Assembly (NCBI GenBank): GCA_038237515.1
Contig: JBBRYP010000009.1
Location: 7,953 to 71,952, forward strand
Length of the DNA stretch: 64,000 bases
Direction of reading: 5' to 3'
Source of the DNA: Gaiellales bacterium
GTDB lineage: Bacteria; Actinomycetota; Thermoleophilia; Gaiellales; Gaiellaceae
The notes below the pieces were generated by a model. It was not told where the DNA came from. It was given only the letters and a program-made list of their open reading frames with translations, and did not search any database. This document shows, piece by piece, positions 17,602 to 63,902 of this stretch. The translations under genes were made by a program, and so were the position numbers. The first letter of the stretch is position 1; every line of letters begins with the position of its first letter.

Positions 17602-18462
17602 GTGAGTGTGAGGCGGACAGGGGCGACGCCCGCACAGCTGGAAGCGCTCTACCGCGAGCGCTTCACGCACTTCGCTCGGGTGGCGGCGGCGATCTGCGCG
17701 TCGTACTCGAGGACGAAGCGAGCCGGCACGAGGTCCCCGTCCGCTCGAACACCTTCCTCTACGTCGCCGAGCACCGGGTGCGGCGCGTGTGGGCGCGTAC
17801 CGCCGCCGGGCTCGTCGGCGTACCGTTCGTCCCCCACCGTTCGAGCTAGGCGGTGGCATCTCGGTGCGTGCGGCGCCTGTGCGGCGGCCGGATCCCCTGG
17901 CTCGAGACACGCGAGCCGCGCGGCCGGCCGCTCAGCGTCCTCCCGCCCCGGCCGCGGGTCGCCGTGCTCGGGCGCAGGCTCGAACCGGCCCCGCACACGA
18001 GGGTGGTCTTCGGCCGCGTCCTCACGTCGGACCCCGACCGGCCGGTGCGGATCGCCCTGACCCTGAACGCAGACCACGTCGGCGGGCGGGTTGCTGGCAT
18101 CTGCTCCTGGCTCGTCACCCGGGGCCCGAATCGTGGCGCTGCTCGCGGGCGGGGAGCGCGCCCCGGTCCAGCTCGTGGACAACACGTTCCTCGTCGACCT
18201 CCCGCGTACGAAGCTCCCGGCGCGCCTCGTCGGCCGCGTCCGCTCGGACGTGGTGGCGGTGCGGATACGCTTCGCGGACGGCACGACGACGACGCTGCGT
18301 CCGACCCGCGGCTACGTCCTCTACGCGGCCCCACGGGAGCACCTGTCCGCTGCCACGGGCGCGGTCGCCGCCGAGGGCCTTCGCCGTGACGGTAGCGTCG
18401 TCGCGAGGCTGTCGTTCGTCCCGCCGAAGCCTTCGCGCGCCGTCGGTGGCCACGTGCGGTAG
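17602..18462 (+). pseudogene. Decayed locus: ECF-sigma N-terminal remnant fused or adjacent to a frame-disrupted beta-rich protein
   Basis: High third-position GC tracks the frame of the 17602 start codon up to about 17694 (AQLEALYRERFTHFARVAAAI, sigma-70 region-2-like). It then switches at ~17690 to a second frame, which is interrupted by an in-frame TAG at 17847-17849. At the homopolymer CCCGGGGCCC (18118-18127) it switches back to the original frame and continues to the stop at 18462. Confidence 0.55.
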
Positions 18463-18536
18463 ATCTCTCGCTGCCTGCGCGGAGCCGCCGGCGCCGCCGT
18501 GCCGCCCCCGCCGGCCGAGCGATAAGCTCGGCCGGC

Positions 18537-20555
18537 GTGTCACACGACACCGACAAGCTGATCCGCCAGCTCTCGCTCGTCGCCTTTCTGATGGCCGAGC
18601 GGCGGCCGCTGACGGCTCGTGACGTCAAGTCGAACGTCGAGGGCTACCAGGAGATGTCCGACGAGGCGTTCGCCCGCCGCTTCTACTCCGACCGAACCGA
18701 GCTGATCGGGCTGGGCGTCCCGCTCGATTCCCAGCGCGACGAGTTCACGGGAGAGGAGCTCTACACCCTTCGCTCGGAGCGCTACTTCCTGCCGCCCCTC
18801 GAGCTCTCGGACGAGGAGCTGGCGGCGCTCCAGACCTGCTTCTACCTCCTGGAGGGCAAGTTCGCCTATGCGGAGCCCCTCCGGCTCGCCCTCCAGAACC
18901 TCGCACTCGGGCGCCCGGGCTTCGACGAGGCGCCGACCGAGACGGCCGTGCGCGTCGAGGTCCGCGACCCCGACTACTCGGTGGAGATGTCGAGCCGCCT
19001 CGGCAAGCTCGAGGGAGCGATCTCGAAGCAGCGGACGATCCGCTTCCGCTACTGGTCGATCGCACGCGACGAGGAGCGGGAGCGGCAGGTCAACCCGTAC
19101 GCGCTCTTCCAGGAGAACGGCGGCTGGTACGTCGTCGGGCGCGACCTCGAGGCGCAGGACGAGCGGACGTTCCGCGTCTCGCGCATCCGCGGGGAGATCC
19201 GGTTCGCGACCCGGCGGGAACGCGACTTCCGGCTCCCGGCCGGCTTCGACATCGAGAACTACCGCGGCCGCCCCCCCTGGCAGATCGGCGAGACAGCCGG
19301 CGAGGCGAGGATCGAGGTCGGCGGCGACACGGCCTGGTGGGTCGAACGCGCCTACGGGCGCAGCGGGCGCGTGGAGGATGGTGTCTTCGTCACGCCCTAC
19401 TCGAGCCTCCCCCTCCTCGCGTCGTGGGTTCTTCGCCAGGAGGGTCGAGCGATCCCGGCCGCTCCTGCCGCCCTCCGGCGGGAGGTGGCGGCGAGCCTGC
19501 GGCGCGTCCAGGAGCGTCACGAAGGTCCGCCCGCTGCGCCGGCCGAGGAGTTGTCGGTTCCTCACGTGGACGGGCAGGTCGAGCGGCCCTCGGGGCCCGT
19601 CGTGCCGGAGCGGTTCGCGGTCCTCCAGGCGCTCCTGGCCTTCCTGCTCGCCCGCTGCGGCGAAGGGCCCGAGACGGTGATCGCAGCGTCGGAGCTCGTC
19701 GAGCGCTTCAAGATCCCGCCGGAGGAGCTCGAGGAGCACCTCTCGCTTCTCAACCTCGTCAACTTCGGCGGGGGCTGCTACGCGGTCTACGCCGAGCTCC
19801 ACGGCGACGAGATCCACGTCGACAAGGAGCTGTTCGGCGACACCTTCAGGTCGCCTCCGCGACTGACGCCGCTCGAGGCGAGGGCGATCCGCCTGGCGCT
19901 CGAGTTCGTCGGGCCGATGATCGCTGCCGATGCGAACACGCCGCTGGAGCGGGTCCGGCGCAAGCTCGAGGAGACGTTCGGTGCGTTCGAGCCCGCGCAG
20001 CACTCGGCGCCGCACGTCGACCTGGCCGAGGCGGACCTGGTCGCGACCCTCACGGACGGCATCCGCGGCCTGCGGCTCGTCGAGATCGAGTATCAGAAGG
20101 AGGCCGACGACGCCCCGGCGTCCCATCTCGTCGAGCCCTACGTGCTCGAACGGGAGCTCCCGCACTGGTACGTCCACACCTGGGATCGCACCCGCGACGG
20201 TAAGCGCAGCTTCCGCCTCGACCGCATGAAGGGCGCACGGCTCGTCGCCGGGAGCTTCGAGCCGCGGGAGGATTTCGAACCCGACCGGCTGAGCGAGGCG
20301 CGCGTGGCCCGAATCCTCTACACGCCCGCGATCGCCAGGTGGCGCCTCGAGCGCGGCGACGCACGAGCGCTCTCCGACGGCTCCGCCCTCTCGGAGACCG
20401 CGGTCGGGAGCCCCGAGTGGCTGATCGGCGAGATCCTCTCCTTCCGGGGAGAGGCCGTCGTTCTCGAGCCGCCCGACCTGCGAGCGCAGATCGCGCGGCG
20501 CGCGCGCGAGCTCGCGCGCGAGCTACGCGTCTCGCGGCTCCCCGCGCGGGCCTGA
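18537..20555 (+). CDS. Fused PafB-PafC-like transcriptional regulator (two HTH-WYL-WCX modules)
   Basis: 672 aa. N-terminus KLIRQLSLVAFLMAERRPLTARDVKSNVEGY...EAFARRFYSDRTELIGLGVPL resembles PafB. Two WYL-type cores (NPYALFQENGGWYVVGRD..RTFRVSRI and VEPYVLERELPHWYVHTWD..RSFRLDRM). Confidence 0.8.
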   Translation: MSHDTDKLIRQLSLVAFLMAERRPLTARDVKSNVEGYQEMSDEAFARRFYSDRTELIGLGVPLDSQRDEFTGEELYTLRSERYFLPPLELSDEELAALQTCFYLLEGKFAYAEPLRLALQNLALGRPGFDEAPTETAVRVEVRDPDYSVEMSSRLGKLEGAISKQRTIRFRYWSIARDEERERQVNPYALFQENGGWYVVGRDLEAQDERTFRVSRIRGEIRFATRRERDFRLPAGFDIENYRGRPPWQIGETAGEARIEVGGDTAWWVERAYGRSGRVEDGVFVTPYSSLPLLASWVLRQEGRAIPAAPAALRREVAASLRRVQERHEGPPAAPAEELSVPHVDGQVERPSGPVVPERFAVLQALLAFLLARCGEGPETVIAASELVERFKIPPEELEEHLSLLNLVNFGGGCYAVYAELHGDEIHVDKELFGDTFRSPPRLTPLEARAIRLALEFVGPMIAADANTPLERVRRKLEETFGAFEPAQHSAPHVDLAEADLVATLTDGIRGLRLVEIEYQKEADDAPASHLVEPYVLERELPHWYVHTWDRTRDGKRSFRLDRMKGARLVAGSFEPREDFEPDRLSEARVARILYTPAIARWRLERGDARALSDGSALSETAVGSPEWLIGEILSFRGEAVVLEPPDLRAQIARRARELARELRVSRLPARA

Positions 20556-24681: not shown

Positions 24682-25311
24682 CTAGTCGTCGAGAGCCTGC
24701 CGCGCCCGCTGCGGATCGACCGGAGTGCCGCGGCCTGCCCGTAGCCAGTCGACGAGGTGAGCGCGGCCCATGACCCACACCCCCTGCCGGCGGTAGGGGC
24801 TGTCGTCGCGCGTCGCGAGGCAGATGACGGGGGTCACCCAGACCCTCAGGCGCTCGTGCGCCCACGACGCCTCGCGCTTGGCCTGCCGGAGGTGGCGCTC
24901 CTCGTAGCGCCGGAGCTTCGTCTCGACGACGTAGGCGCCGGTCCGGCCGCAGACGAGGTGGTCGACATTGCCGCCGTGATCGAGCTCGAGATCGTGCAGG
25001 ACGAGCATCCCCTCGCCGCGAAGCCGCTCGAGCTCGATTCCCACCTCGCGCTCGGCCCGGCTGCCGCGGACCCAGCCGATCGCCTCGACGCTCGCCTGCT
25101 CGGCGGAACGGAAGGCGATCAGCGCAAGGGCCACGACGCCGAGGCCGGCCACCGCTCCGTGGCCTGAACTCAGCCATCCCAGCCGGGCCGCCAGGGCGCC
25201 GGTCAGGATGGAGACGCCGAAGAGCGCGAGCAGGAGCCAGACGCGGCGCGTCTCGCGCCGGCTGCGCTCGGTCGCCCACGCGCCGGGCATACGAGCTTCG
25301 TCGACCCCCAC
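24682..25311 (-). CDS. Membrane-anchored NERD (nuclease-related domain) protein
   Basis: Two N-terminal TM helices, then GSRAEREVGIELERL...VLHDLELDHGGNVDHLVCGRTGAYVVETK, the NERD core. Confidence 0.7.
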   Translation of the reverse strand: MGVDEARMPGAWATERSRRETRRVWLLLALFGVSILTGALAARLGWLSSGHGAVAGLGVVALALIAFRSAEQASVEAIGWVRGSRAEREVGIELERLRGEGMLVLHDLELDHGGNVDHLVCGRTGAYVVETKLRRYEERHLRQAKREASWAHERLRVWVTPVICLATRDDSPYRRQGVWVMGRAHLVDWLRAGRGTPVDPQRARQALDD

Positions 25312-25371
25312 GAGAATTGAATCGGCTGCGTGGGCGTGTTTCCTTAGAGTCGTCGCGGCAGAACGTGACGC

Positions 25372-30333: not shown

Positions 30334-31614
30334 GTGATGGGGACGCGGATAGACGCTCTGCCGCGCCCACCGGGCGCGGGCGAGCTGGTTCTACGGGGGC
30401 AGCAGCGACGCCTTCGCCTCCTTCCGTTCCTAGGCCCTGCGTTCATCGCCTGCGTCGCGTACATCGATCCGGGCAACTTCGCGACCAACATCGCCGGGGG
30501 CTCGAAGTTCGGGTACACGCTCGTGTGGGTGATCGTCGCCGCCAACCTGATGGCGATGCTCATCCAGTTGCTTTCGGCGAAGCTCGGCATCGCCACCGGG
30601 CAGAACCTGCCCGAGCTCTGCCGCGAGCGCTTCTCGACGCGGACGGCGATGGGTCTCTGGGTTCAGGCGGAGCTCATCGCGATGGCCACCGACCTCGCCG
30701 AGTTCCTCGGGGCCGCGCTCGGGTTCCATCTGCTCCTCGGGATCCCGCTGTTCGCGGCCGCCGTCATCACCGGCGTCGCGGCCTTCGCGATCCTTGCGCT
30801 GCAGCGCTTCGGCTTCCGGCCGTTCGAGGCGGTCATCGCTGGGATCGTCGGGGTCGTCGGCGTCTCCTACGTCGCAGAGCTCTTCTACGCGAAGCCGCCC
30901 TATGCCACCGTCGCGAAGCACGCGTTCGTGCCGGAGTTCAGAGGCCAGGAGTCGGTGCTGCTCGCGGTCGGGATCCTCGGCGCGACGATCATGCCGCACG
31001 TCATCTACCTCCACTCCGCTTTGATGCAGAACCGCGTGGTGCCGGAGAACGACCAGGAGGCGCGGCGGCTGATGCGCTACACGAGGGTCGACGTGGCGAT
31101 CGCCATGTCGCTCGCGGGCTTGATCAACGTCGCCATGCTCGTAGTGGCGGCCAGCGTCTTCTACAAGTCGGGCTTCCTCCACGTCGACTCGCTCGAGGGC
31201 GCCCACCGCACGCTCCAGCGTCTCCTCGGCGGCAGCGCCAAGACCCTGTTCGCGCTCGCCCTCGTCGGGTCGGGCCTCTCCAGCTCGACGGTCGGAACGA
31301 TGGCCGGGCAGGTGGTCATGCAGGGCTTCATCCGGCGCAAGATCCCGGTGTTCGTCCGTCGCCTGGTGACGATGCTACCGGCGTTCGTCGTCATCGGGAT
31401 TGGCGTCGACCCCTCGCGGACGCTCGTCCTCAGCCAGGTCGTCCTCTCCTTCGGGATCCCGTTTGCGCTGATCCCGCTCGTCCTCTTCACCTCGCGGAGG
31501 GACGTCATGGGCGCCCTGGCGAACCACCGCCTGACGACGGCGGTCGCAGTCGTGGTCGCGGCACTGATCTGCGCGCTCAACGTGTTTCTGCTCGCGCAGA
31601 CGTTCGGGCTGTAG
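30334..31614 (+). CDS. mntH: Nramp-family divalent metal (Mn2+) transporter
   Basis: 426 aa. FLGPAFIACVAYIDPGNFATNIAGGSKFGY and ATIMPHVIYLHS. Confidence 0.93.
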   Translation: MMGTRIDALPRPPGAGELVLRGQQRRLRLLPFLGPAFIACVAYIDPGNFATNIAGGSKFGYTLVWVIVAANLMAMLIQLLSAKLGIATGQNLPELCRERFSTRTAMGLWVQAELIAMATDLAEFLGAALGFHLLLGIPLFAAAVITGVAAFAILALQRFGFRPFEAVIAGIVGVVGVSYVAELFYAKPPYATVAKHAFVPEFRGQESVLLAVGILGATIMPHVIYLHSALMQNRVVPENDQEARRLMRYTRVDVAIAMSLAGLINVAMLVVAASVFYKSGFLHVDSLEGAHRTLQRLLGGSAKTLFALALVGSGLSSSTVGTMAGQVVMQGFIRRKIPVFVRRLVTMLPAFVVIGIGVDPSRTLVLSQVVLSFGIPFALIPLVLFTSRRDVMGALANHRLTTAVAVVVAALICALNVFLLAQTFGL

Positions 31615-31670
31615 CCGCTTCGCCTCCGGGTGTCCCGTGCGCCGAGTGCGGCTACCGAGGCCACTGAGTC

Positions 31671-31890
31671 CGACGACGGCGAGGCGGGCGAGGTAAAGAA
31701 CCTCCTCGGCGTTGAAGGACCAGTCATTGGTGTGCATGAGCCGGTAGGCGAGTGCATGTGCACGGAGGGGGCGAAGGGGGGAACTCCGTTCCCCTCTTGG
31801 AGCGGAGGCGAAGCTGCAGCGATAACTCCAACATCCCGTATGGCAGCCGGGGGTCTCGGGGGGCGCGAGCCCCCCGGAAAGCGAGGCGCC
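31671..31890 (+). repeat. Copy A of the ~230-nt structured intergenic repeat (3' end diverged or truncated)
   Basis: Shares ...GAGCCGGTAGGCGAGTGCATGTGCACGGAGGGGGCGAAGGGGGGAACTCCGTTCCCCTCTTGGAGCGGAGGCGAAGCTGCAGCGATAACTCC...GCCGGGGGTCTCGGGGGGCGCGAGCCCCCCGG with the copies at 36775 and 51392. Confidence 0.85.
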
Positions 31891-33089
31891 TACAAATAGC
31901 CCAGCGGATCCACAGCCGACCCGTTGATGCGCACCTCGAAGTGGAGGTGGGGCCCGAAGCAGTGGCCTGTGCAGCCGACATAGCCGAGAACCTGGCCTTG
32001 AGAGACCTGCTGGCCGCTCGAGACGGCGAGGGCGGACTGGTGGCCGTAGGCGGTCGAGATGCCGCCGCCGTGGTCGACCACGACCAGGTTGCCGTAGCCC
32101 CCGAGCCAGCCTGCGTAGACGACGGCGCCGGACGCGGCCGAGTGGATCGGGGTGCCGTACCCGACGCCGATGTCGATGCCCTCGTGCATGCGACCCCAGC
32201 GCCAGCCGAAGGGGCTCGTGATCGGGCCGTTCACCGGCCAGATCAGTCCGGCAGCGGACGGCGGCGCGGACGAGGGAGCCGAAGACGGTGGTGCCGAAGC
32301 CTCGGCTGCACGGATCTTTGCCGCGAGCTGGGCGCTCACCCTGGAGAGCGACTCCGCCTCGGCGACCTCCTCCCGCTCGGCCTTCGTCAGCCCGGCCAGG
32401 GCGCCCTGCTTGCGCTCGCGCTCACGGGCGACGGCGTACTCGCCGGCCAGCAGCCGGTCGCGCACCTCCCGCACCTGCGCCGTTCGCGCCTCGATGACGC
32501 GGGTGGCGGAAGCGACGCCGACGCGCGTACGCCTCGTCGTGAGCCGAGCGATGCGCGCGTCGTCGCGCGCCTGCTCCACCTCGCGCGCGATCTGCTTGTC
32601 CCCCTGTGTCACCAGGCGCAAGAACTCGAGGTCGTCGATCAGCTGCGAGAGGCTGCGCGCGGAGATCAGCACGCCGAGGGTGCCGACCTCGTCGCCTTCG
32701 TACAACTCGATCAGCCGTCGGTCGAGCCGCGCGAGCGCCACCGCGTATTCACGCCGCAGGAACCCGAGACGCTGCGTCTGGAGCTCGAAGAGCGCCGTCA
32801 GGTGGGCGAGACGCTCTTGGTGGAGCTCGAGGTCCTGCTCGAGCGGCGCCAGCCGCGCCTGCGCGCCTCCCACCGCGCCCTCGAATCTGCGAATGCGCGT
32901 CGTCACGGCCGCGATTTCGCCCTTCAACGTCGATTCGCGCGCCTGAAGCGCGGCGATCTTGTCGTGGACGCGCGCGAGCTGCGCGTCGACGTCCACCTTC
33001 CGCTGGGAGGGATTCGTCCCGGCGGCGGGAGCGGCGGCAGCGACGACCGCCAGCACGGCAAGGAGAAGCGAACGGCGCACCCTGACCAC
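31890..33089 (-). CDS. M23 peptidase with N-terminal coiled coil (EnvC-like)
   Basis: C-terminus HEGIDIGVGYGTPIHSAASG...VDHGGGISTAYGH...GPHLHFEV. GTG 33089 or 33080 precedes the signal/TM RRSLLLAVLAVVAAAAPAAG. The longer ORF extending to 33347 overlaps the upstream gene. Confidence 0.85.
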   Translation of the reverse strand: MVRVRRSLLLAVLAVVAAAAPAAGTNPSQRKVDVDAQLARVHDKIAALQARESTLKGEIAAVTTRIRRFEGAVGGAQARLAPLEQDLELHQERLAHLTALFELQTQRLGFLRREYAVALARLDRRLIELYEGDEVGTLGVLISARSLSQLIDDLEFLRLVTQGDKQIAREVEQARDDARIARLTTRRTRVGVASATRVIEARTAQVREVRDRLLAGEYAVARERERKQGALAGLTKAEREEVAEAESLSRVSAQLAAKIRAAEASAPPSSAPSSAPPSAAGLIWPVNGPITSPFGWRWGRMHEGIDIGVGYGTPIHSAASGAVVYAGWLGGYGNLVVVDHGGGISTAYGHQSALAVSSGQQVSQGQVLGYVGCTGHCFGPHLHFEVRINGSAVDPLGYL

Positions 33090-33126: not shown

Positions 33127-33618
33127 CTACTCCGCCTGCGGGATCCCGGGCGCCGGCGCCGGGGGCGTCGCGGGCGGTGGGTACGGCTCGGGAATGTCGG
33201 GCTGCTGCGGCGGCTCGTGCGGGACCGGCGTCGGCTCGGGCACGATCGCCGGCTCCGGAGGCGTCGAGGGCGGCGGGTACGGCTCGGACATGTCGGCCGA
33301 ACCGTACACGCCTCGGCCCGCGCGGGGCTCGAGCGCGGCCAGCGCACCGGCCGCGGCGCGCCGGAGCGGCGTCACGAGCACGCGGTAATCCTCGTCGGAG
33401 ATCTTCCCCGTCCGCTGGTCGAACTCGAGCTCCTTCAGCGCTGCGAGCGCGCGGTCCCGCTCCTCCGCGAGCGCGAGCTGACGCTGCTCCAGCGGCCCCG
33501 GGTCGTCGAGCAGGTCGGCGTCGCGGCGAAGGGCCGGCTCGCGCAGAAAAGGCCGGGCGACGAACAGAACGACTAGGACAGCCAGGACGGCTGCAAGCGC
33601 CAGAGCAGCCGCCGTCAC
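33127..33618 (-). CDS. CcmI/CycH N-terminal-like cytochrome c biogenesis protein with Pro-rich tail
   Basis: GTG 33618 forms a GTGA overlap with the ccmF stop. TM helix, then ALAALKELEFDQRTGKISDEDYRVL, and repeated EPYPPP(S/A)TPP in the tail. Confidence 0.5.
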   Translation of the reverse strand: MTAAALALAAVLAVLVVLFVARPFLREPALRRDADLLDDPGPLEQRQLALAEERDRALAALKELEFDQRTGKISDEDYRVLVTPLRRAAAGALAALEPRAGRGVYGSADMSEPYPPPSTPPEPAIVPEPTPVPHEPPQQPDIPEPYPPPATPPAPAPGIPQAE

Positions 33619-36080: not shown

Positions 36081-36320
36081 CTAGTGGGACGCGCGCGTCG
36101 GGCTGCGGTCCGGGATCCGGTAGCCGTGATCCTCGCAGAGGCTGCCGGGCGCATCCTCTGTCAGCGCGTCGCAGTAGCCCTTGCCGTACGCCGCGCGCAT
36201 GAAGGCCGCGACGACGCCGAGGTTCCACTCGTCGATCTCGCATGCCTCCCGCCAGAGGTCCGCGAGACGAAGGTCGATGTCGAGCTCGAGAAGCTCGATC
36301 CGAGAGGGGTCCTTTGCCAT
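36081..36320 (-). CDS. Small acidic hypothetical protein (79 aa)
   Basis: ATG 36320 (MAKDPSRIELLELDIDL...). Third-position GC is very high. Immediately upstream of ccmE on the same strand. Confidence 0.55.
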   Translation of the reverse strand: MAKDPSRIELLELDIDLRLADLWREACEIDEWNLGVVAAFMRAAYGKGYCDALTEDAPGSLCEDHGYRIPDRSPTRASH

Positions 36321-36517
36321 GGAAAAAGCGTAGGTCCGGCATCGGACGACATGAGTCGCTTGGCTTCTCGTGCGGAGCGGCGGCTTTTCCGCGCAGCGGC
36401 TCCAACCAGGCGCGTAGTGGGAGGCGGAGGGCGGGGGTGGCTCTTCGCTTCCGAGGGCGGGGCGGGCGGCTTTGCGGCGCAACTAGTCCCACTCGGGCGC
36501 GGCGAGAGGCGATGAAC

Positions 36518-36737
36518 GCGAGGGGCGCGATTGAATCGCTTCGCTCCTCCGGGGCTCTCGCCCCCCGAGCCCGCCGGCGACCATGCAGGCGAGAGCAGTT
36601 GGACGCTCCGCCTGCGGCTCCGCTGGATGGGGGACTCGGCGTCCCCCATCACCCCCCGCGGCGCAACTGGACTGGGCCTTCGGCCCGCAGATACCAAGGG
36701 GAGGCTCCCAAAGGCAGCGAATCGAGGGACGATCACC
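36518..36737 (-). repeat. Copy B-left of the structured repeat (most diverged, inverted relative to B-right)
   Basis: Its reverse complement aligns along its full length with 36775-37012 (GGTGAT...TTGGTA...GCCGAAGG...GGGGGAC-GCCGA-GTCCCCC...AGCGGAG...CTCGGGGGGCGAGAGCCCC...GCGATTCAATCGCGCCCCTCGC). Confidence 0.75.
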
Positions 36738-36774
36738 CGGGCTGCCGTGACGGGTGGTGGAGAGGTCAACCGAC

Positions 36775-37012
36775 GGTGATGGAGAGCGTCTGTGCACGGA
36801 GAACCTCATCGGCGAGGATGGAGAACCGTTGGTACGCACGAGCCGGAAGGCGAGTTGCATGTGCCCGGAGGGGGCGAAGGGGGGAACTCCGTTCCCCCCT
36901 TGGAGCGGAGGCGAAGCCGCAGCGATAACTCCTCGAAGGGTGTAGGCAGCCGGGGGGTCTCGGGGGGCGGGAGCCCCCCGGAAGAGCGGAGCGCTCAATT
37001 CGCGCCCCTCGC
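36775..37012 (+). repeat. Copy B-right of the structured repeat (full length)
   Basis: Near-identical over about 235 nt to the reverse complement of 51392-51625. Hairpins GGGGGGAAC-TCC-GTTCCCCCC, CCGGGGGGTCTC...GGGAGCCCCCCGG and GCGC-TCAATTC-GCGC. Confidence 0.9.
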
Positions 37013-37120
37013 AAACCCGCCCCTCGCCCGCCCCGCCTCTCGCCGAGCCGGGTCGCACGCGTTGCCGTCCGGAAAGCCGCCCGCTCCGGGACGGAGTCCC
37101 CTACGAGCTATCGTCGCCGC

Positions 37121-38029
37121 ATGACCCCGACGATCCGCCTCGGGCCTGCGCGCTGCCCGTCTCGAGAGAGTCCCGACGAAGCGATCCGGCTCCTGCTCGA
37201 GCGCGGCTACACCGCCTGCGAGCTCGACTTCGAGGGCCGGTTCTGGATGGATTACGCGTTCGCGGAGCGCCTCGGCGCGCTCGGGCGCGAGGCGGACATC
37301 GCCCTCTCCGTGCACGCGCCGATCGCCGGGTTCCTCGGCCAGCTGGAGCGCGACAAGAAGCACCGGATGGCCCTCGGCATGCTCGACCATTCCGCGGGAC
37401 TCGCGGCAGCGGCCGGCGCCGAGCTCGTCGTCTTCCACCCAGGCTTCCTCCTCGGCCGGGAGCGGCAGGCTGCGCTCGACGCGGTCGTCGAGCAGCTCCG
37501 GGAGCTGCGCGAGCGGCTCGAAGCGAAGGGACGAGCGGTTCCCTTCGGGATCGAGATCATGGGGCGCGTCCGCGAGCTGGGCACCGCCGCGGACGTCTTC
37601 TTCGTCGCGGCGCAGCTGCCCTGGGTGCGTCCCGTGATCGACTTCGCGCACCTCCACGCCGTCACCGACGGCGGTTTCACCGAGGCAGGAGCGTTCGCCG
37701 GCGTCCTGGAGATCGCAGACTCGATCCTCGAGCCGGGGATTCCCTTCCACGTCCACTTCTCCGACATCGCCTACGCGAACCGCAACGAGACGAAGCACCT
37801 CTCCTACGGCGAGGGAACGCTCCGCGCCGGCCCTCTGCGCGAGGCTTTGGCGGCCTGCGAGCGGCCCGCGACGGTGATCAGCGAGTCGCCGGACGAGGCG
37901 TCACATCAGGCGATCGGAGCGGCACTCGCCTCGAGGACTGCCGCGAGCTTGCCCGCTGGAACGAGCTCGAGCAAGCGGCGCGCGAAGGGCTCCGCCTCGT
38001 CGCCGCGGTCACGCTCGACGAGGAACTGA
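37121..38029 (+). CDS. TIM-barrel AP-endonuclease-2 / endonuclease IV-like (xylose isomerase-like fold) protein
   Basis: SVHAPI, VVFHPG, GIEIMG, IDFAHLHA, HVHFSD: the metal-ligand pattern of the Nfo / sugar-phosphate-isomerase fold. The last ~40 codons overlap the convergent gene. Confidence 0.7.
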   Translation: MTPTIRLGPARCPSRESPDEAIRLLLERGYTACELDFEGRFWMDYAFAERLGALGREADIALSVHAPIAGFLGQLERDKKHRMALGMLDHSAGLAAAAGAELVVFHPGFLLGRERQAALDAVVEQLRELRERLEAKGRAVPFGIEIMGRVRELGTAADVFFVAAQLPWVRPVIDFAHLHAVTDGGFTEAGAFAGVLEIADSILEPGIPFHVHFSDIAYANRNETKHLSYGEGTLRAGPLREALAACERPATVISESPDEASHQAIGAALASRTAASLPAGTSSSKRRAKGSASSPRSRSTRN

Positions 38030-46966: not shown

Positions 46967-49174
46967 TCACGACGGAGTCATGCGATACGCGTCGAAGACG
47001 GCCTCGACGTTCCGCAGCGCCGTCAGCAGCGAGCGCAACTCCTTGACGTCCCCGACCTCCGCCGTGTACCAGTTCTTCGCGAGCTGATCCTCGACGACGC
47101 CGCCGTAGGACACGATGTTGGCGCCGTGCTCGGCGAACGTCCGCGCGACGTCCTCGAGCAGGCGCGACCGATCCCAGGCATCGACCGCGATCTGGACGCG
47201 AAAGCTCGAGGAGGTGACGCCGCCGTCCCAAGAGACCGGCGTGAAGCGTTCGGCGTTCCGGCGCAGCGTCTTCACGTTCGGGCAGTCCTCGCGGTGGATG
47301 GTGATCCCCTTGCCGAGCGAGATGTAGCCGACGATCGGGTCGCCCGGCACCGGTGTGCAGCACTTCGCGAGCCGGACGAGCACGTCCTCGACTCCCGTCA
47401 CGGCGATGCCGACGTTGTCGCTCGAGACGACGTTCCTCGCCTTCGGCGCCTTGAGCGGGATGGTCTCCTCGGATGCGACCTCTTCCGTCTTCAGCCGCTG
47501 GATCACCTTCTTGACGATCTGCCCTGCCTGGAGCTTCCCCTGGCCGAGCGCGATGTAGAAGTCCTCGGCTTTCTTGAAGCCCGTCTCTCGGATCACCTGG
47601 GCGAGCACCGCCGATCCGACGAGCTTGCGGTAGGGGAGGTTCTGCGAGCGGAGCGCGGACTCCAGCGCCTCACGCCCCTTCTGCTCGGAGTCCTCGCGGT
47701 TCTCGCGCGAGAACCACTGGCGGATCTTGTTCCGCGCGCGGGAGGAGGCCGCGAGCGACATCCAGTCGCGTGACGGGCCTCGGCCGCTCTTCGCGGTCAG
47801 GATTTCGACGAAGTCGCCGCTGCGCAGCCGGTAGTGGAGCGGCACGATCCGACCGTTCACCTTCGAGCCGACGGTGCGGTGCCCGACGTCCGTGTGCACG
47901 GCGTAGGCGAAGTCGATCGGAGTCGACCCCGCCGGCAGCGTCTTCACGGCGCCCTTGGGGGTGAAGACGTACACCTCCTCGTCGAGCAGGTCGGTTCGGA
48001 AGTTCTTCATGAACTCGCGCGGATCGGACTCGTCCGCCTGCCCGTCGATCAGCTGCTTGACCCAGGCGCGCCACTCGGCATCCTGACGGCCGCCCTTGCG
48101 GCGTTTGTAGAGCCAGTGCGCGGCGATCCCGAGTTCGGCGATGTCGTGCATCTCCCGCGTGCGCACCTGGATCTCGAGCGGCCGGCCCTTGGGTCCGATC
48201 ACGGTCGTGTGCAGGGCGCGGTAGCCGTTGAACTTCGGCATCGCGATGTAGTCCTTGAAGCGGCCGGGCATCGGCTTCCAGAGCGAGTGGATGAGGCCGA
48301 GCGCGCCGTAGCAGTCGCGCGTCCCCTCGTCCCCGGAGCGCTCGGCGATCACGCGCATCGCCGTCAGGTCGTAGATCTCGTTGAACTCGCGACCCTTCTT
48401 GGCCATCTTGTCGTAGATGGAGTAGAAGTGTTTGGCGCGACTCGAGATCTCGGCCGGGATGTCGACCTTGTCAAGCTCTTTCTGGAGCACTCCGGCCGCC
48501 TCCCGCACGTGCTCCTCGCGGTCGGCCCGCCGCTCCGCGACCATCGTCTTGATCTCGGCGTACTTGCGCGGGTGGAGCGTCGCGAAGGCGAGGTCCTCCA
48601 GCTCCCATTTGAGCTCGTGGATGCCCAGGCGGTGCGCGAGGGGCGCGTAGACTTCGAGCGCCTCCTTCGCCTTGCGCACCTGGGTCTGCTTGCCGAGATA
48701 CTCGATCGTGCGCAGGTTGTGGAGACGGTCGGCGAGCTTGATGAGGATCACGCGCCGATCCTCGGCCATGGCCATGATCATCTTCCGGTAGTTCTCGGCC
48801 TCCGCGTGCTCCCGGCTTTGGAAGTGGATCCGGGTCAGCTTCGTCACCCCGTCGACGAGCTTCGCGACCTCCTCCCCGAACTCCGCCCGCAGCGTGTCGA
48901 GGCTCGTATCCGTGTCCTCGACGACGTCGTGGAGAAGCGCGGCGGCGAGCACCGGTTCCTCCTGGCGCAGCTCCGCCAGGATCTTCGCGACGCCGAACGG
49001 GTGGATGATGAACTCCTCGCCGGAGCGGCGTTGCTGGCCTTCGTGCGCCTCCGCAGCGGCATGGAAGGCCCGCGTAAGCAGCTCCCGATCCACGTCCGGG
49101 TTGTACGCGGCGACATCGGAGATCAGCTCGTCGACCCGATCCTGCTGGCGCTCGGCTGCCTCCACGACGGCCAT
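46967..49174 (-). CDS. relA: Bifunctional (p)ppGpp synthetase/hydrolase Rel
   Basis: 735 aa. HD domain (HPFGVAKIL...LLHDVVEDT), synthetase domain (YRALHTTV), and TGS and ACT regions. Confidence 0.95.
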   Translation of the reverse strand: MAVVEAAERQQDRVDELISDVAAYNPDVDRELLTRAFHAAAEAHEGQQRRSGEEFIIHPFGVAKILAELRQEEPVLAAALLHDVVEDTDTSLDTLRAEFGEEVAKLVDGVTKLTRIHFQSREHAEAENYRKMIMAMAEDRRVILIKLADRLHNLRTIEYLGKQTQVRKAKEALEVYAPLAHRLGIHELKWELEDLAFATLHPRKYAEIKTMVAERRADREEHVREAAGVLQKELDKVDIPAEISSRAKHFYSIYDKMAKKGREFNEIYDLTAMRVIAERSGDEGTRDCYGALGLIHSLWKPMPGRFKDYIAMPKFNGYRALHTTVIGPKGRPLEIQVRTREMHDIAELGIAAHWLYKRRKGGRQDAEWRAWVKQLIDGQADESDPREFMKNFRTDLLDEEVYVFTPKGAVKTLPAGSTPIDFAYAVHTDVGHRTVGSKVNGRIVPLHYRLRSGDFVEILTAKSGRGPSRDWMSLAASSRARNKIRQWFSRENREDSEQKGREALESALRSQNLPYRKLVGSAVLAQVIRETGFKKAEDFYIALGQGKLQAGQIVKKVIQRLKTEEVASEETIPLKAPKARNVVSSDNVGIAVTGVEDVLVRLAKCCTPVPGDPIVGYISLGKGITIHREDCPNVKTLRRNAERFTPVSWDGGVTSSSFRVQIAVDAWDRSRLLEDVARTFAEHGANIVSYGGVVEDQLAKNWYTAEVGDVKELRSLLTALRNVEAVFDAYRMTPS

Positions 49175-49433
49175 GCGCCCAGTCTACTCCCGGCCTCCGG
49201 CGATCGATCCCCCGTCGAGGGGAGGACGCCGCGGCAGGGATTGCCGTTACGACATTGAACCGATGGAACCGGTGCTTCGACGACGTCGAACCCGACGCAG
49301 GGCCCTCGAGCTCGCCCGCCTCCTGCTCGCGCTCGACGCGGCCTCGGGGGCTGAGTCCGGGGCGACGCCTCGCACGAGCCGCATCTCGCTGCGAGCGGCG
49401 CGCGGCTGAGCCCGGGTGCGGCGGCCGCGGCTC

Positions 49434-51305
49434 TTACGCAGCCTGCGCGAGCGGCGGAGCCTCGAGCAACGCTCGGAACGTCGGGGATTCGAGGAGGTGT
49501 CGCCGGTTCGACGCGCCCGCGCCAAGTCCCAGCTCGTCGAACACCGCCCTCGCGTCGTCGCTCCAGCCGCTCTCGCCTGCCCGCCACATCGCCGCGAAGC
49601 GCTCGCGCAGCGCCTCGTAGCCCTCGGACGCCTCGAAGATCTCCCGGACGACGAGTTGCGGCGCGACCGTGCCGTTCCAACGGTTCTCCTGGAGACGGAA
49701 GGCGACGTCGTAGCGGCAGGACGCCCGGAAACGGTCGAGGTCGCGGCCCCGGCCGAAGGCGATCGCGCTGCCGGCGTCGCGGCGGCGCTCGTGGACCCGG
49801 AAGCGGAGATGCTTCCCCTCCCCCACGGCGCTCAACTCGGCCAGCTCACAATCGGCGACGAGCAGCGTGACATTCGGGTTCCCGAGGCCGAAGGGCGCAA
49901 GGCGGCCAAGTTCCTCGCACAGGCCGAGGGTGAGTTCCGAGCCGTGGACGACAGCGTCGACGGCGGTGGTGCGATCGAGGTCGCGGTCGTCGAGTAGCCC
50001 ACTCGCGTGGCGTCCGAAGGCGGCGGCGAACGCATCGACGCGATCCGGTTCGATCGACAGCCCGGCAGCCGCTCGGTGGCCCCCGAAGCGGCAGAGGTGC
50101 TCGGCGCACACCGCGAGCGCGGCATGGAGGTCGAACGCGGGGATGGAGCGGCCGGAGCCCTTCCAATCGCCCGCCGTGCCGGCGATCATCACGACCGGCC
50201 TCGAGAACCGCTCGACGAGCCGAGACGCGACGATTCCGATGACGCCTTCGTGCCAGCCCTCGTCCGCGAGCACGTAACCCCGCTGCCCGCGTCGCGAGGG
50301 CGGCCAGCTCTCCACCTGGGCGAGCGCCTCCCGCAGAATGCGATCCTCGACCGCCTGACGATCGCGATTGAGCTCCTCGAGACGGGCAGCGAGCTCCTCG
50401 GCCGGCGCGGCGTCGTCGGTCAGCAGCAGCTCGAGGGCGGCCTCCGGTCTTCCGAGCCGGCCGGCCGCGTTGATCCGCGGAGCGAGCCGGAAGCCGACGC
50501 CCGCCTCGTCCACCGTCGCGGGATCGACCCGAGCGCTCTGCATGAGCGCCCGGAGCCCGGGCTTCTGCGTGCGCGCGAGGCGCTTCAGGCCCGCGGACGC
50601 GAGCGCGCGGTTCTCGTCGACGAGCGGGACGACGTCGGCGATCGTGGCGAGGGCGACGAGGTCGAGATGGCGCTCCAGCAGCTCCGCCTCTGCCCCGAGG
50701 AGCGCCTGGCCGAGCTTGTAGACGACGCCGGTTCCGCAGAGCTCGGGGAAGGGATACTCGGACGGGCGCGTTGCGACGATGGGACAGGCGGGAAGCGTCT
50801 CTCCCGGCCTGTGGTGATCGGTGACGACGACCTCCAGGCCGGCCGCCCGCGCTTCCGCGACCTCGTCGATGGCGGTGATCCCGCAGTCGACCGTGAGCAC
50901 GAGGCCGCACCCTTGATCCGAGAGCCGGGCCAGCGTCTCGCGCGAGACGCCGTACCCCTCCTCGAAGCGGCTCGGGAGATGCCACTCGACGTCGGCACCC
51001 AGTTCGCGCAGGACGAGCACCGCCAGAGCTGTGGCGCAGATGCCGTCGACGTCGTAGTCACCGTGCACGCAGATGCGTCGACCGGCGTCGATCGCCCTGC
51101 GGATCGCGGCGCAGGCCTCGTCCATCGCGCCGAGCAGGAACGGGTCGTGAAGGGGCGGCCGTCCCTCGAGGAAGCGCTTCGCGGGCTCGACTTCGGCGAG
51201 TCCGCGGCGGACGAGCACGCTCGCCGTCGTAGCGCTCACACCGAGCGCCTCGGCCAGCGAGGCGGCCGCGCGAGGCGGGCAGGGAGCACGGATCGTCCAG
51301 CTCAT
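49434..51305 (-). CDS. recJ: Single-stranded-DNA-specific exonuclease RecJ
   Basis: 623 aa. VHGDYDVDGI, TVDCGI, VVTDHH (DHH motifs), GGHRAAAG (DHHA1). Confidence 0.92.
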   Translation of the reverse strand: MSWTIRAPCPPRAAASLAEALGVSATTASVLVRRGLAEVEPAKRFLEGRPPLHDPFLLGAMDEACAAIRRAIDAGRRICVHGDYDVDGICATALAVLVLRELGADVEWHLPSRFEEGYGVSRETLARLSDQGCGLVLTVDCGITAIDEVAEARAAGLEVVVTDHHRPGETLPACPIVATRPSEYPFPELCGTGVVYKLGQALLGAEAELLERHLDLVALATIADVVPLVDENRALASAGLKRLARTQKPGLRALMQSARVDPATVDEAGVGFRLAPRINAAGRLGRPEAALELLLTDDAAPAEELAARLEELNRDRQAVEDRILREALAQVESWPPSRRGQRGYVLADEGWHEGVIGIVASRLVERFSRPVVMIAGTAGDWKGSGRSIPAFDLHAALAVCAEHLCRFGGHRAAAGLSIEPDRVDAFAAAFGRHASGLLDDRDLDRTTAVDAVVHGSELTLGLCEELGRLAPFGLGNPNVTLLVADCELAELSAVGEGKHLRFRVHERRRDAGSAIAFGRGRDLDRFRASCRYDVAFRLQENRWNGTVAPQLVVREIFEASEGYEALRERFAAMWRAGESGWSDDARAVFDELGLGAGASNRRHLLESPTFRALLEAPPLAQAA

Positions 51306-51391
51306 CCCGATCGACGGTACGGACGCCGTCGGACGCCGTCCTTGCGGGACGCAGCGAGTCCGAGCCGACGCGCGGCGAGGGCCAGGGGAAA

Positions 51392-51625
51392 GCGAGGGGC
51401 GAGTGAATCGCTGCGCTTTGCCGGGGGGCTCTCGCCCCCCGAGACCCCCGGCCGCCTACACCCTTCGAGGAGTTATCGCTACGGCTTCGCCTCCGCTCCA
51501 AGGGGGGAACGGGGTTCCCCCCTTCGCCCCCTCCGGACACGTGCACTCGCCTGCCGGCTCGTGCATACCAACCAGTCCTCCAAGAACGCCGAGAGGTTCT
51601 CTGGGCACAGATGCTCTCCATCACC
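51392..51625 (-). repeat. Copy C of the structured repeat (full length), 87 nt upstream of and co-oriented with recJ
   Basis: The reverse complement begins GGTGATGGAGAGCATCTGTGCCCAGAGAACCTC and ends GCGATTCACTCGCCCCTCGC, colinear with 36775-37012. Confidence 0.9.
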
Positions 51626-51688
51626 GCGCGCGGGTCGCACTCGTTGCGCTCCGCATCCCCGCCCGCGGAAAGCGAAGACTCGTACGGG

Positions 51689-51970
51689 CTATTCGTGCGG
51701 GAGCGGTCCGACGAAGAAGGACAGCACCACCATGGCGCCGAGGACGGCCAACGTGACGGCGACGATCAGCCGGGGGTGCCGCTGGTTTCGCAGCGACTGG
51801 AGCGCGATCCTCACCCAGAGCGCGATCAGCATGACGGCGGCTCCGACGGCTGCGACGATCACGGGCGCGAGCACTGCGGCTCGATCCCACGAAAGCTCGA
51901 AGAGATACGCGACGAGGACGGTCACGCCCGCACACGCGAGCGCAGAACCGACGAGCAGCCTCGGCCTCAT
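51689..51970 (-). CDS. Small membrane protein (3 TM, 93 aa)
   Basis: Three hydrophobic helices, high third-position GC, no family recognised. Confidence 0.5.
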   Translation of the reverse strand: MRPRLLVGSALACAGVTVLVAYLFELSWDRAAVLAPVIVAAVGAAVMLIALWVRIALQSLRNQRHPRLIVAVTLAVLGAMVVLSFFVGPLPHE

Positions 51971-52002
51971 GAGGGTATTTTCGCCGTTGGTATCCTCCGC
52001 CC

Positions 52003-53141: not shown

Positions 53142-54152
53142 TCAGAAGAGCGCGCGTGCAGCCTCGGTCGTCGCCCCGATGTGCTCGCGGCCGAGCGCGG
53201 TGAGGACGCGCCCGCGCGGCGTGCGCTGCATGAAGCCGAGCTGGAGCAGGTACGGCTCGTACACGTCCTCGATCGTGTCCGGCTCCTCCCCCAGCGACAC
53301 CGCCAGCGTCGAGAGGCCGACGGGGCCGCCCTCGAATTTCCACGCGATCGCCGCGAGCAGCTCGCGATCGGTCCGCTCGAGACCCGCGTCGTCGACCTCG
53401 AGCAACTCGAGCGCCTCGCGCGCGACTGCCGTCGAGATCTCTCCCTCGTGGCGCACCTCGGCGACGTCGCGGACGCGCCGAAGGATCCGGTTCGCAACCC
53501 GCGGCGTGCCGCGCGAGCGGCGGGCGATCTCGGCCGAGGCTTCGGGGGTGATGGCGACGGCGAGGATCGCGGCCGAGCGCGTCACGATCCGGGCCAGCTG
53601 TTCGGCGTCGTAATAGCCGAGGCGGAACGTCATCCCGAAGCGGTCGCGCAGCGGCGTCGTGAGCAGGCCCGTCCGCGTCGTCGCGCCGACGAGGGTGAAC
53701 GGCGGCAGGTCGAGGGTCAGCGTCCGGGCGGCCGCCCCCTGCCCGACGACGATGTCGAGGCGAAAGTCCTCGAGCGCCGGGTAGAGGATCTCCTCGACCG
53801 CCGGGTTCAGACGATGGATCTCGTCGATGAAGAGCACGTCGCGCCGCTCCAGCGAGGTCAGAATCGCCGCCAGGTCCCCCTTTCGCTCGAGCGCGGGACC
53901 CGCGACGGTGCGGAGGCCGACGCCGAGCTCCGAGCGCACGATGTACGCGAGGCTCGTCTTGCCGAGCCCGGGCGGCCCGACGAGCAGGACGTGGTCGAGC
54001 GCCTCTTCGCGGGCGCGTGTCGCCTCCAGCGCCACGCGAAGCTGCTCCTTCGTCCGCTCCTGACCCACGAACTCGTCGAGGGCGCGCGGTCGCAGCGAGC
54101 GCTCGACCGCATCCTCCTCCGGCTGGAGCACCGGCGCGAGAAAGTCGTTCAC
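53142..54152 (-). CDS. ruvB: Holliday junction branch migration helicase RuvB
   Basis: [13 protein letters not shown], Walker [12 protein letters not shown], Walker [10 protein letters not shown]. Confidence 0.96.
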
Positions 54153-54327
54153 GCGCGTCCCTCGCCGGCGGCGGCTCCCGCCCGGCAGAGCCGGGCTCCG
54201 CCGCCGCCTGACGTCGCTCGCAGCACCCGGCTCTCCGGGCCCTCACTAGACGTACTGTCCCCTCCGGCCGGGCACCGCGAGCGACGCCCGAGGAACGCGC
54301 GGGCGTTGGTGGTTGCCACAGGGCGTC

Positions 54328-63829: not shown

Positions 63830-63902
63830 TGGGCCCGCCAGGATTCGAACCTGGGACCGACGGATTATGAGTCCGCTGCTCTGACCGCTGAGCTACAGGC
63901 CC
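63830..63902 (-). tRNA. tRNA with CAU anticodon (elongator Met, or Ile2 if lysidinylated), no encoded CCA
   Basis: On the minus strand: GGGCCTGTAGCTCAGCGGTCAGAGCAGCGGACTCATAATCCGTCGGTCCCAGGTTCGAATCCTGGCGGGCCCA. This folds as a cloverleaf with a 7-bp acceptor stem, a TPsiC loop GGTTCGAATCC, and an anticodon loop CTCATAA. It lacks the three consecutive G-C pairs in the anticodon stem typical of initiator tRNA. Confidence 0.9.

Follow-up and report, generated by a model that had tools for sequence, protein, structure and literature searches.

What is the repeated sequence that lies upstream of recJ in this genome, and does it belong to the control of recJ? The locus was studied in a 64-kb stretch of Gaiellales DNA (the window; 64,000 nt, G+C content 70.7%). 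The Gaiellales are an abundant and little-cultured order of soil actinobacteria. The first-pass annotation had described 51392-51625 as a full-length repeat copy that could be a leader or regulatory RNA as well as a MITE. The genes around it are as follows.

46967-49183, reverse strand: rel.
49434-51305, reverse strand: recJ, with the Pfam domains DHH, DHHA1 and RecJ_OB; homologues of 621-625 aa cover 100% of it.
51689-51970, reverse strand: small hydrophobic ORF of 93 codons upstream of recJ; relatives have genes of 65-69 aa at this position.
53142-54242, reverse strand: ruvB.

We aligned the interval 51392-51625 (copy C) with the reverse complement of 36775-37012 (copy B). The alignment had 240 columns, 210 of them identical (87.5%), with 22 mismatches and six gap runs of 3, 1, 1, 1, 1 and 1 nt. 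The match over about 235 nt seen earlier is thus real and far beyond chance, and the differences quoted from it (GAGTGCACGTGTCC versus GAGTTGCATGTGCCC, and CCC versus TCC in a hairpin loop) are present. The argument that the indels speak against a conserved peptide was also correct, as gap runs of 1 to 3 nt shift the reading frames. The interval itself, however, is not the full element. Outward homology of C with B and D continues beyond 51392 to about 51341 (score of the outer stretch of C versus B, 36; shuffle mean 19, sd 2.9), and the 60 nt past 51625 repeat the arm's outer part in inverted orientation; therefore the unit spans about 51335-51685, or ~350 nt. It starts at 51335-51341, and at its other end homology to the outer part of D reaches ~51675. 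The element accordingly ends ~30 nt from the recJ ATG and ~5-15 nt from the stop codon of the small ORF, instead of the 87 and 64 nt given before. Near its two ends lies a 39-nt inverted repeat with a score of 36, about 6 sd above the mean of 500 shuffles (mean 16.9, sd 3.0, maximum 33). Because of this inverted-repeat architecture, the label of C as co-oriented with recJ is arbitrary. The parts of copy C are listed below.

51335-51685 (each end within 10 nt), no strand assigned: full unit of copy C, specific to the window, between the small-ORF stop and a conserved block next to recJ.
51343-51381, forward strand: subterminal inverted repeat of the recJ-side arm, pairing inversely with 51618-51656 over 39 nt.
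51392-51625, no strand assigned: interval of the first-pass annotation, which is the arm core plus a tail common to B.
51421-51451, forward strand: Unit 1, CCGGGGGG-CTCTCG-CCCCCC-GAGA-CCCCC-GG, a hairpin with an additional C-run behind it; no block of the family is more conserved.
51500-51531, forward strand: Unit 2, AAGGGGGGAAC-GGG-GTTCCCCCCTT-CG-CCCCC, likewise a hairpin with an additional C-run behind it; the hairpin persists in B, D and types 1 and 2 of a Gaiellales MAG, with altered closing pairs (A-T/A-T, A-T/T-A, G-C/T-A).
51618-51656, reverse strand: subterminal inverted repeat of the small-ORF-side arm, apparently a remnant of the outer part of the opposite (D-type) arm; it resembles the outer regions of D and B (GCGCAACGAGTGCGACCCG).

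With one whole arm and the outer ~60 nt of another, copy C resembles a composite that has lost its interior. A perfect 10-nt tandem duplication, CGGACGCCGT CGGACGCCGT, was seen at 51320-51339, exactly at the putative recJ-side junction of C. Its recJ-proximal part (51320-51334) falls in the block conserved with relatives, and the duplication might be a junction footprint or the product of slippage.

The window was then found to hold three loci with four arms in all. The core pattern GGGGCTCNCGCCCCCCGAG-N40-55-CTCCGCT matched four times, with none expected and none found in any of 100 shuffles, and a profile search and a covariance model both returned exactly four arms, A, B, C and D. The dispersed copies A, B and C share 83-88% identity, copy A (~31697-31889) being 83-84% identical to B and C, whereas copy D (36518 onward, forward strand) is only ~70% identical. 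The elements differ in size, from 275 nt for A and ~350 nt for C to ~700 nt for the composite made of D and B. The two other loci are the following.

31615-31889, reverse strand: copy A, which fills the whole spacer between the convergent stop codons of an Nramp gene (31612-31614) and an M23 peptidase gene (31890-31892).
36358-37100, no strand assigned: composite D-B, consisting of the D arm (forward, core 36539-36657), a centre and the B arm (reverse, core 36870-36989).

Copy A lacks the outer ~95 nt of its arm, and the homology of B to C spans 36774-37153. The D and B arms stand tail to tail and form one composite between divergent genes; their outer parts are related to each other (score 51; shuffle mean 20.7, sd 3.0). 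The outer end of B faces an AP_endonuc_2-family gene (37121-38029, forward), and that of D faces a gene of ~77-79 aa (36081-36320, reverse). It had been remarked that three of the four copies sit upstream of a co-oriented gene. The outer ends of C, B and D do face gene starts, but B and D are arms of one composite, so the count arises because D-B sits between divergent genes and C sits beside recJ.

Some further features of the window were recorded. Just outside arm D, the stretch 36352-36410 (GAGTCGCTTGGCTTCTCGTGCGGAGCGGCGGCTTTTCCGCGCAGCGG) resembles a second, tandem copy of a D-type outer end; therefore the true left end of the composite is uncertain within 36358-36428. Two 50-nt direct repeats (33151-33296, 88% identity, 96 nt apart) lie in the long ORF upstream of the M23 peptidase domain, where the product of the gene caller starts later (388 aa, versus an ORF of 493 codons). 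A 719-aa PafBC-like protein with two WYL domains, HTH_PafC and WCX is encoded at 18396-20555 on the forward strand, with a NERD-domain protein nearby at 24682-25371 on the reverse strand. The sole Rfam match at the gathering threshold in the window is a tRNA gene (63830-63902, reverse strand).

All copies in the window lie within 20 kb (31.6-51.7 kb), as would be expected if the repeats arose by local segmental duplication or gene conversion in this chromosome region and did not belong to a dispersed family. They occur, however, in both orientations and between unrelated flanks, and related arms were found on at least ten separate contigs of other Gaiellales MAGs as well as on a metagenome contig. 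A genome scan with the core pattern returned ten contigs, nine of them in one Gaiellales MAG (JBBRYK01) and one in another (JBBQRN01). A metagenome scan returned three contigs, with a true arm in L012 and the short hairpin alone in L011 and L013; the latter two were considered as copies of the element and rejected, since the hairpin is present and the element is not. A scan of viral contigs gave no match. As the genome and metagenome scans required exact pattern matches, these copy numbers are lower bounds. The copies in other genomes already contradict a local duplication, which we regard as extremely improbable. The distribution of the family among Gaiellales is patchy.

The arms in the MAG are of two types, ~65-70% alike, which face each other across a common centre. 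The resulting composite of ~450-500 nt is itself repeated (L001, L002, L005, L006 and L009), and truncated or solo arms occur in L003, L007 and L009. In one MAG arm (L004, ~67-200), about 12 G and more than 30 C replace the second hairpin. This run probably arose as an assembly or sequencing artefact at the homopolymer hairpin, and elements of this kind may therefore interrupt or distort the assembly of MAGs. The short hairpin GGGGGGCTCNCGCCCCCC was seen alone in unrelated metagenome contigs (L013, ~800-870, reverse complement; L011, ~450-480), in L013 as an inverted doublet (GCGAGC-hairpin-GAG...CTC-hairpin-GCTCGC) that is REPIN-like.

We then compared the recJ locus with its counterparts in relatives. 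The best RecJ homologues are proteins of Gaiellaceae MAGs with ~75% identity. L014 (JBHEMU010000021) and L017 have the gene order of the window (ruvC, ruvA, ruvB, small genes, recJ, rel), and the distance from the stop of the small gene to the recJ ATG is 48-51 nt, in contrast to 383 nt in the window. The repeat element is absent upstream of recJ in L014, L015, L016 and L017. In L015 and L016 the spacer between the small ORF and recJ holds a different insert with a reverse-strand gene for a 176-aa product (L015 3371-3901, L016 1-480; GCA_013695295, GCA_020063725); the product has a match to Pfam Phage_T4_gp19. Because these two carry a different insert there, the spacer may be a recurrent insertion site.

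The D-B site gave a similar picture. In L019, 55 nt separate the two divergent gene starts, versus 800 nt in the window; the first ~38 nt beside the small gene can be aligned, and the element is absent upstream of AP_endonuc_2. At the A site, a closer relative (L018, 85% identity in M23) has an unrelated spacer of 219 nt and not an empty site. This M23-Nramp spacer was considered as a decayed copy of A and rejected, its similarity being no better than that of shuffles. The covariance model detected no arm in ~55 kb of the relatives' loci, versus four in the window. The element is thus present in the window and absent at the orthologous recJ and AP_endonuc_2 sites, a difference seen at family-level divergence (~75% RecJ identity). 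The insertion of C is accordingly a matter of parsimony and not of strain polymorphism, the closest relatives at the recJ locus sharing ~75% RecJ identity. Because related genomes do without the element at the recJ site, it probably represents an ordinary insertion, as opposed to a control element dedicated to recJ.

Between the element and recJ lies a block that is outside the element and shared with the relatives.

51306-51334, reverse strand: ancestral block next to recJ, GTCCG-N6-TCCG-TACCGT-N8-ATG, conserved with relatives.

One prominent feature of this block is a TANNNT hexamer that resembles a −10 element (TACCGT, 51314-51319). The window, L014, L015 and L017 have in common the pattern GTCCG-N6-(T/A)CCG-TANNNT-N8-ATG, in which T-A-N3-T and the flanking CCG and GTCCG are invariant; therefore the 29 nt next to the recJ ATG are ancestral. 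Similar TANNNT-N6/7-start blocks, read from the sequence, lie beside B and D and are common to L019. Hexamers of the TANNNT form thus precede, by 6-8 nt, the starts of recJ, of AP_endonuc_2 (37108-37113) and of the ~77-79-aa gene (~36327-36332), with conservation in L014, L017 and L019.

The usual −10 element of Actinobacteria is TANNNT, and leaderless transcripts are frequent among them. From this and from the conserved hexamers near the starts, we infer that transcription begins downstream of the element, at the start codons or right beside them. The conserved block suggests a promoter downstream of copy C and a leaderless or near-leaderless recJ transcript, and the three hexamers together suggest transcripts of this kind in this lineage for AP_endonuc_2 and the ~77-79-aa gene as well. 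The first-pass annotation had named a recJ start downstream of the element as evidence against a leader, and it is beside the ATG, downstream of the element, that the putative start falls.

A rival reading can be weighed on this basis, namely that of a cis-regulatory leader, or of a small RNA gene in many copies, that would be transcribed in the sense of recJ and control recJ-rel and other downstream genes by its hairpins. Three arms have their outer ends towards gene starts (C towards recJ, B towards AP_endonuc_2, D towards the ~77-79-aa gene), but the conserved TANNNT-N6-8-start blocks lie downstream of the element, relatives lack it upstream of recJ and AP_endonuc_2, and copy A is located between convergent gene ends. 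The genes adjoining the copies show no evident common function. A functional link between recJ and a possible endonuclease IV among the downstream genes was considered and dropped, the AP_endonuc_2 protein scoring far below the Nfo cut-offs and being no clear Nfo; the neighbours are functionally unrelated. Read-through from the small ORF would place the element in that transcript, and conserved hairpins are present in it; yet a scan of 51200-52000 for sigma-70 promoters and intrinsic terminators found none in the element, with terminator-like sites outside it only, and no T-run follows its hairpins. Single-sequence folding gave z-scores of −0.9 and −1.7, not distinguishable from shuffles.

Searches with RNA models pointed the same way. 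No Rfam family, 6C RNA included, reached threshold in C, in D-B or in the MAG composite, and the best matches of a sensitive search (E values of 0.27-0.45), far below threshold, fell on unrelated families from eukaryotes, viruses or archaea. The 6C RNA of Actinobacteria (Rfam RF01066) resembles the element in its actinobacterial host and in two hairpin modules with C6 runs, which would stand in loops under an alternative fold. This 6C-like fold was tried and rejected, for neither strand matched the covariance model; moreover, the element is multi-copy and mobile-like, unlike a single conserved gene, and has no terminator. Taken together, these results make a leader or small RNA very unlikely. 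Of the two readings first offered, the MITE-type one is supported, with dispersed, inverted, non-coding copies that are absent in relatives and patchy in distribution, and the leader RNA is not.

Coding capacity and marks of mobility were also examined. The copies hold no conserved ORF, their frames being shifted relative to one another, and a six-frame translation of C used as protein query against 5.8 billion sequences gave no match at E<=0.001. Neither a transposase nor an autonomous element with matching ends was found in the ~40 Pfam-scanned ORFs of the window, which are housekeeping, or between the MAG arm pairs, and we know of no parent IS for this Gaiellales repeat family. At the junctions assigned to C, known to within 10 nt, no target-site duplication was seen.

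A TA duplication of the IS630/mariner-like kind (TA at 51318/9 and 51683/4) was considered for C and dropped, because the alignment with L014, L015 and L017 shows that the recJ-side TA, part of the −10-like hexamer, is ancestral along with 15 nt beyond it. In the MAG, the arm ends read TA|GGGGTC(G/T)G, with TA preceding most of these ends. The composite in L002 has similar ends, GGGTCGGCACGGCCG and GGGGTCTGTTCGGCCG, and TA on both sides; TA is rare in the window, at 1% per position. As target-site duplications, these TA flanks are only suggestive. The ends GGGGTC(T/G)G resemble Tn3-type repeats, and ends of the Tn3 family were rejected in view of L002, which lacks a flanking 5-bp duplication.

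The most conserved part of the family is the arm core of ~120 nt, which contains two G6-loop-C6-N4-C6 units; the other strand reads G6-N4-G6-loop-C6. Across 14 arms of five to six types, TTTCCGGGGGGCTC-N-CGCCCCCCGAG-N-CCCCCC(GG) and TCCGCTC are nearly invariant, as is the second hairpin, GGGGGG(A)AC-loop-G(T)TCCCCCC, with a further C5-6 run after it. Both hairpins are predicted by RNAalifold from the arm alignment. The closing pairs of the second hairpin vary in sequence yet still pair (AA/TT in B and C, AT/AT in MAG type 1, GT/AC in MAG type 2, GAT/ATC in D), and these are compensatory changes between types in one hairpin. The window has five distinct sites of the three-block sequence GGGGG(G)-N4-GGGGGG-N6-CCCCCC, where none would be expected, and every one of them lies within A, B or C.

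This conservation bears on what the element is. A plain decaying MITE leaves the conservation of two three-block units unexplained, and on that ground the core might be a structural module of nucleic acid kept by selection, as opposed to transposon sequence in decay, a reading that we put forward tentatively and with considerable doubt. Such a core could correspond, in Actinobacteria, to the intrastrand-triplex or structure-switching repeats of the BoxC type. A dedicated enzyme might recognise it, or it might act as a U-tract-less terminator or insulator where transcription units are closely packed, as with the small ORF and recJ.

The BoxC/TMECO repeats of enterobacteria are abundant and patchy and have been linked to genome rearrangement (Holder et al. 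2015, PMC4666352). The search definition used for intrastrand triplexes (ITxF) asks for three compatible blocks with stems of 6-15 nt and loops of 1-6 nt, and the TMECO consensus is CCCTCNCCC-N3-6-GGGNGAGGG-N3-GGGNGAGGG (PMC4666352). Unit 1 conforms to the ITxF definition, whereas Unit 2 needs a second loop of 9 nt. Like BoxC/PIT/TMECO of E. coli and relatives (PMC4666352), the units have three consecutive blocks of the G/C homopolymer type with short loops, their strands read purine-purine-pyrimidine and purine-pyrimidine-pyrimidine, and they belong to intergenic repeats that are patchy among related genomes. In the scheme of Holder et al. the G-rich strand of this layout falls in class I and the C-rich strand in class III, in contrast to class II. 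The units do not fit the TMECO consensus in block sequence or block order: the blocks here are G6/C6 and not CCCTCNCCC/GGGNGAGGG, the stems have just 6 nt, and two units lie inside a larger arm. The resemblance, judged by analogy, is one of form only.

A related possibility is that the family consists of REP/BIME-like, host-integrated structural elements, whose units would be recognised as ssDNA by a RAYT-like or other dedicated enzyme, and whose arms may be retained as U-tract-less terminators, mRNA stabilisers or insulators. REP/REPIN/BIME elements are a known kind of bacterial repeat (PMC3116915, PMC2817692, PMC3733652). The likeness to them lies in G+C-rich palindromes in alternating orientation, in mosaics with other motifs, in an extragenic location and in stand-alone and doublet hairpin forms (L011 and L013). 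Short G+C-rich palindromes in alternating orientation are indeed found here, with two hairpins per arm and inverted arms, and other motifs lie between the arms as in BIMEs. The near-invariance of the G6/C6 hairpin units across types, with pairing of the second hairpin kept through double changes, would also fit. So would the first hairpin unit standing alone and as an inverted doublet in unrelated contigs, and the copies that directly follow stop codons (A, the small-ORF side of C, and L012). G/C-rich three-block repeats are, besides, known as abundant bacterial elements (BoxC/TMECO, PMC4666352).

By inspection, however, no GTAG or CGTC tag adjoins the hairpins in the 14-arm alignment, where the flanks are TTTCC...GAG(N) and AA/AT/GT...TT/AT/AC, and the hairpins lack a T-run. 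The units sit within much larger repeats, unlike REP/REPIN/BIME elements; they are embedded in elements of 250-700 nt that move as wholes, which is more MITE-like than REP-like. We hold this REP/BIME-like structural reading to be unlikely, if somewhat less so than a leader.

Well-known bacterial MITEs include Correia/NEMIS in Neisseria, ERIC/IRU in enterobacteria and RUP in Streptococcus pneumoniae. The present family is like them in being small (below ~600-700 bp) and non-coding, with many dispersed copies of high identity and with inverted repeats near the ends, which are subterminal in the window. Its copies are intergenic, near the starts or ends of genes, present or absent between related genomes, and internally deleted in ways that keep both ends. 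It is unlike them in that the inverted 'ends' are arms of ~250-300 nt of two types and not short TIRs, that the arm core is conserved across diverged subfamilies, and that no target-site duplication was seen. Strong core conservation across diverged types is not obviously required of a purely selfish, decaying MITE, which counts against our preferred reading.

With this reservation, copy C is probably a mosaic repeat of a non-autonomous, MITE/BIME-like kind that was inserted upstream of the putative core promoter of recJ. A non-coding, interspersed family of MITE/BIME type would have proliferated in some Gaiellales lineages, its full element consisting of two non-identical inverted arms, as in D-B and in the 450-500-nt composites of the MAG. 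Internal deletion would have given C, in which one arm and the ~60-nt outer part of the other, with inverted repeats near both ends, remain. This copy would have entered a ~50-nt spacer between the small ORF and recJ, just upstream of the TANNNT-N8-ATG block; because that block is read as a core promoter downstream of the element, C would not be a recJ leader. Movement would presumably occur in trans, through an enzyme that recognises the terminal or subterminal repeats or the hairpins, and any effect on recJ-rel would come about by read-through from the small ORF into the hairpins.

These findings explain, by copy C, the unusually long spacer in an otherwise tight ruvCAB, small ORF, recJ and rel region, and they caution that the element should not be annotated as a leader of recJ or a small RNA. 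Full-text literature searches linking Gaiella or Gaiellales to MITEs or REPs returned nothing relevant, and an interspersed repeat family of the Gaiellales is thus documented for which no prior description was found. Its copies could serve as markers for genome plasticity at the strain level in MAGs, and they are likely break points of assembly. If the G6/C6/C6 units have a structural role, the family would provide a high-G+C parallel to the BoxC/TMECO repeats of enterobacteria.
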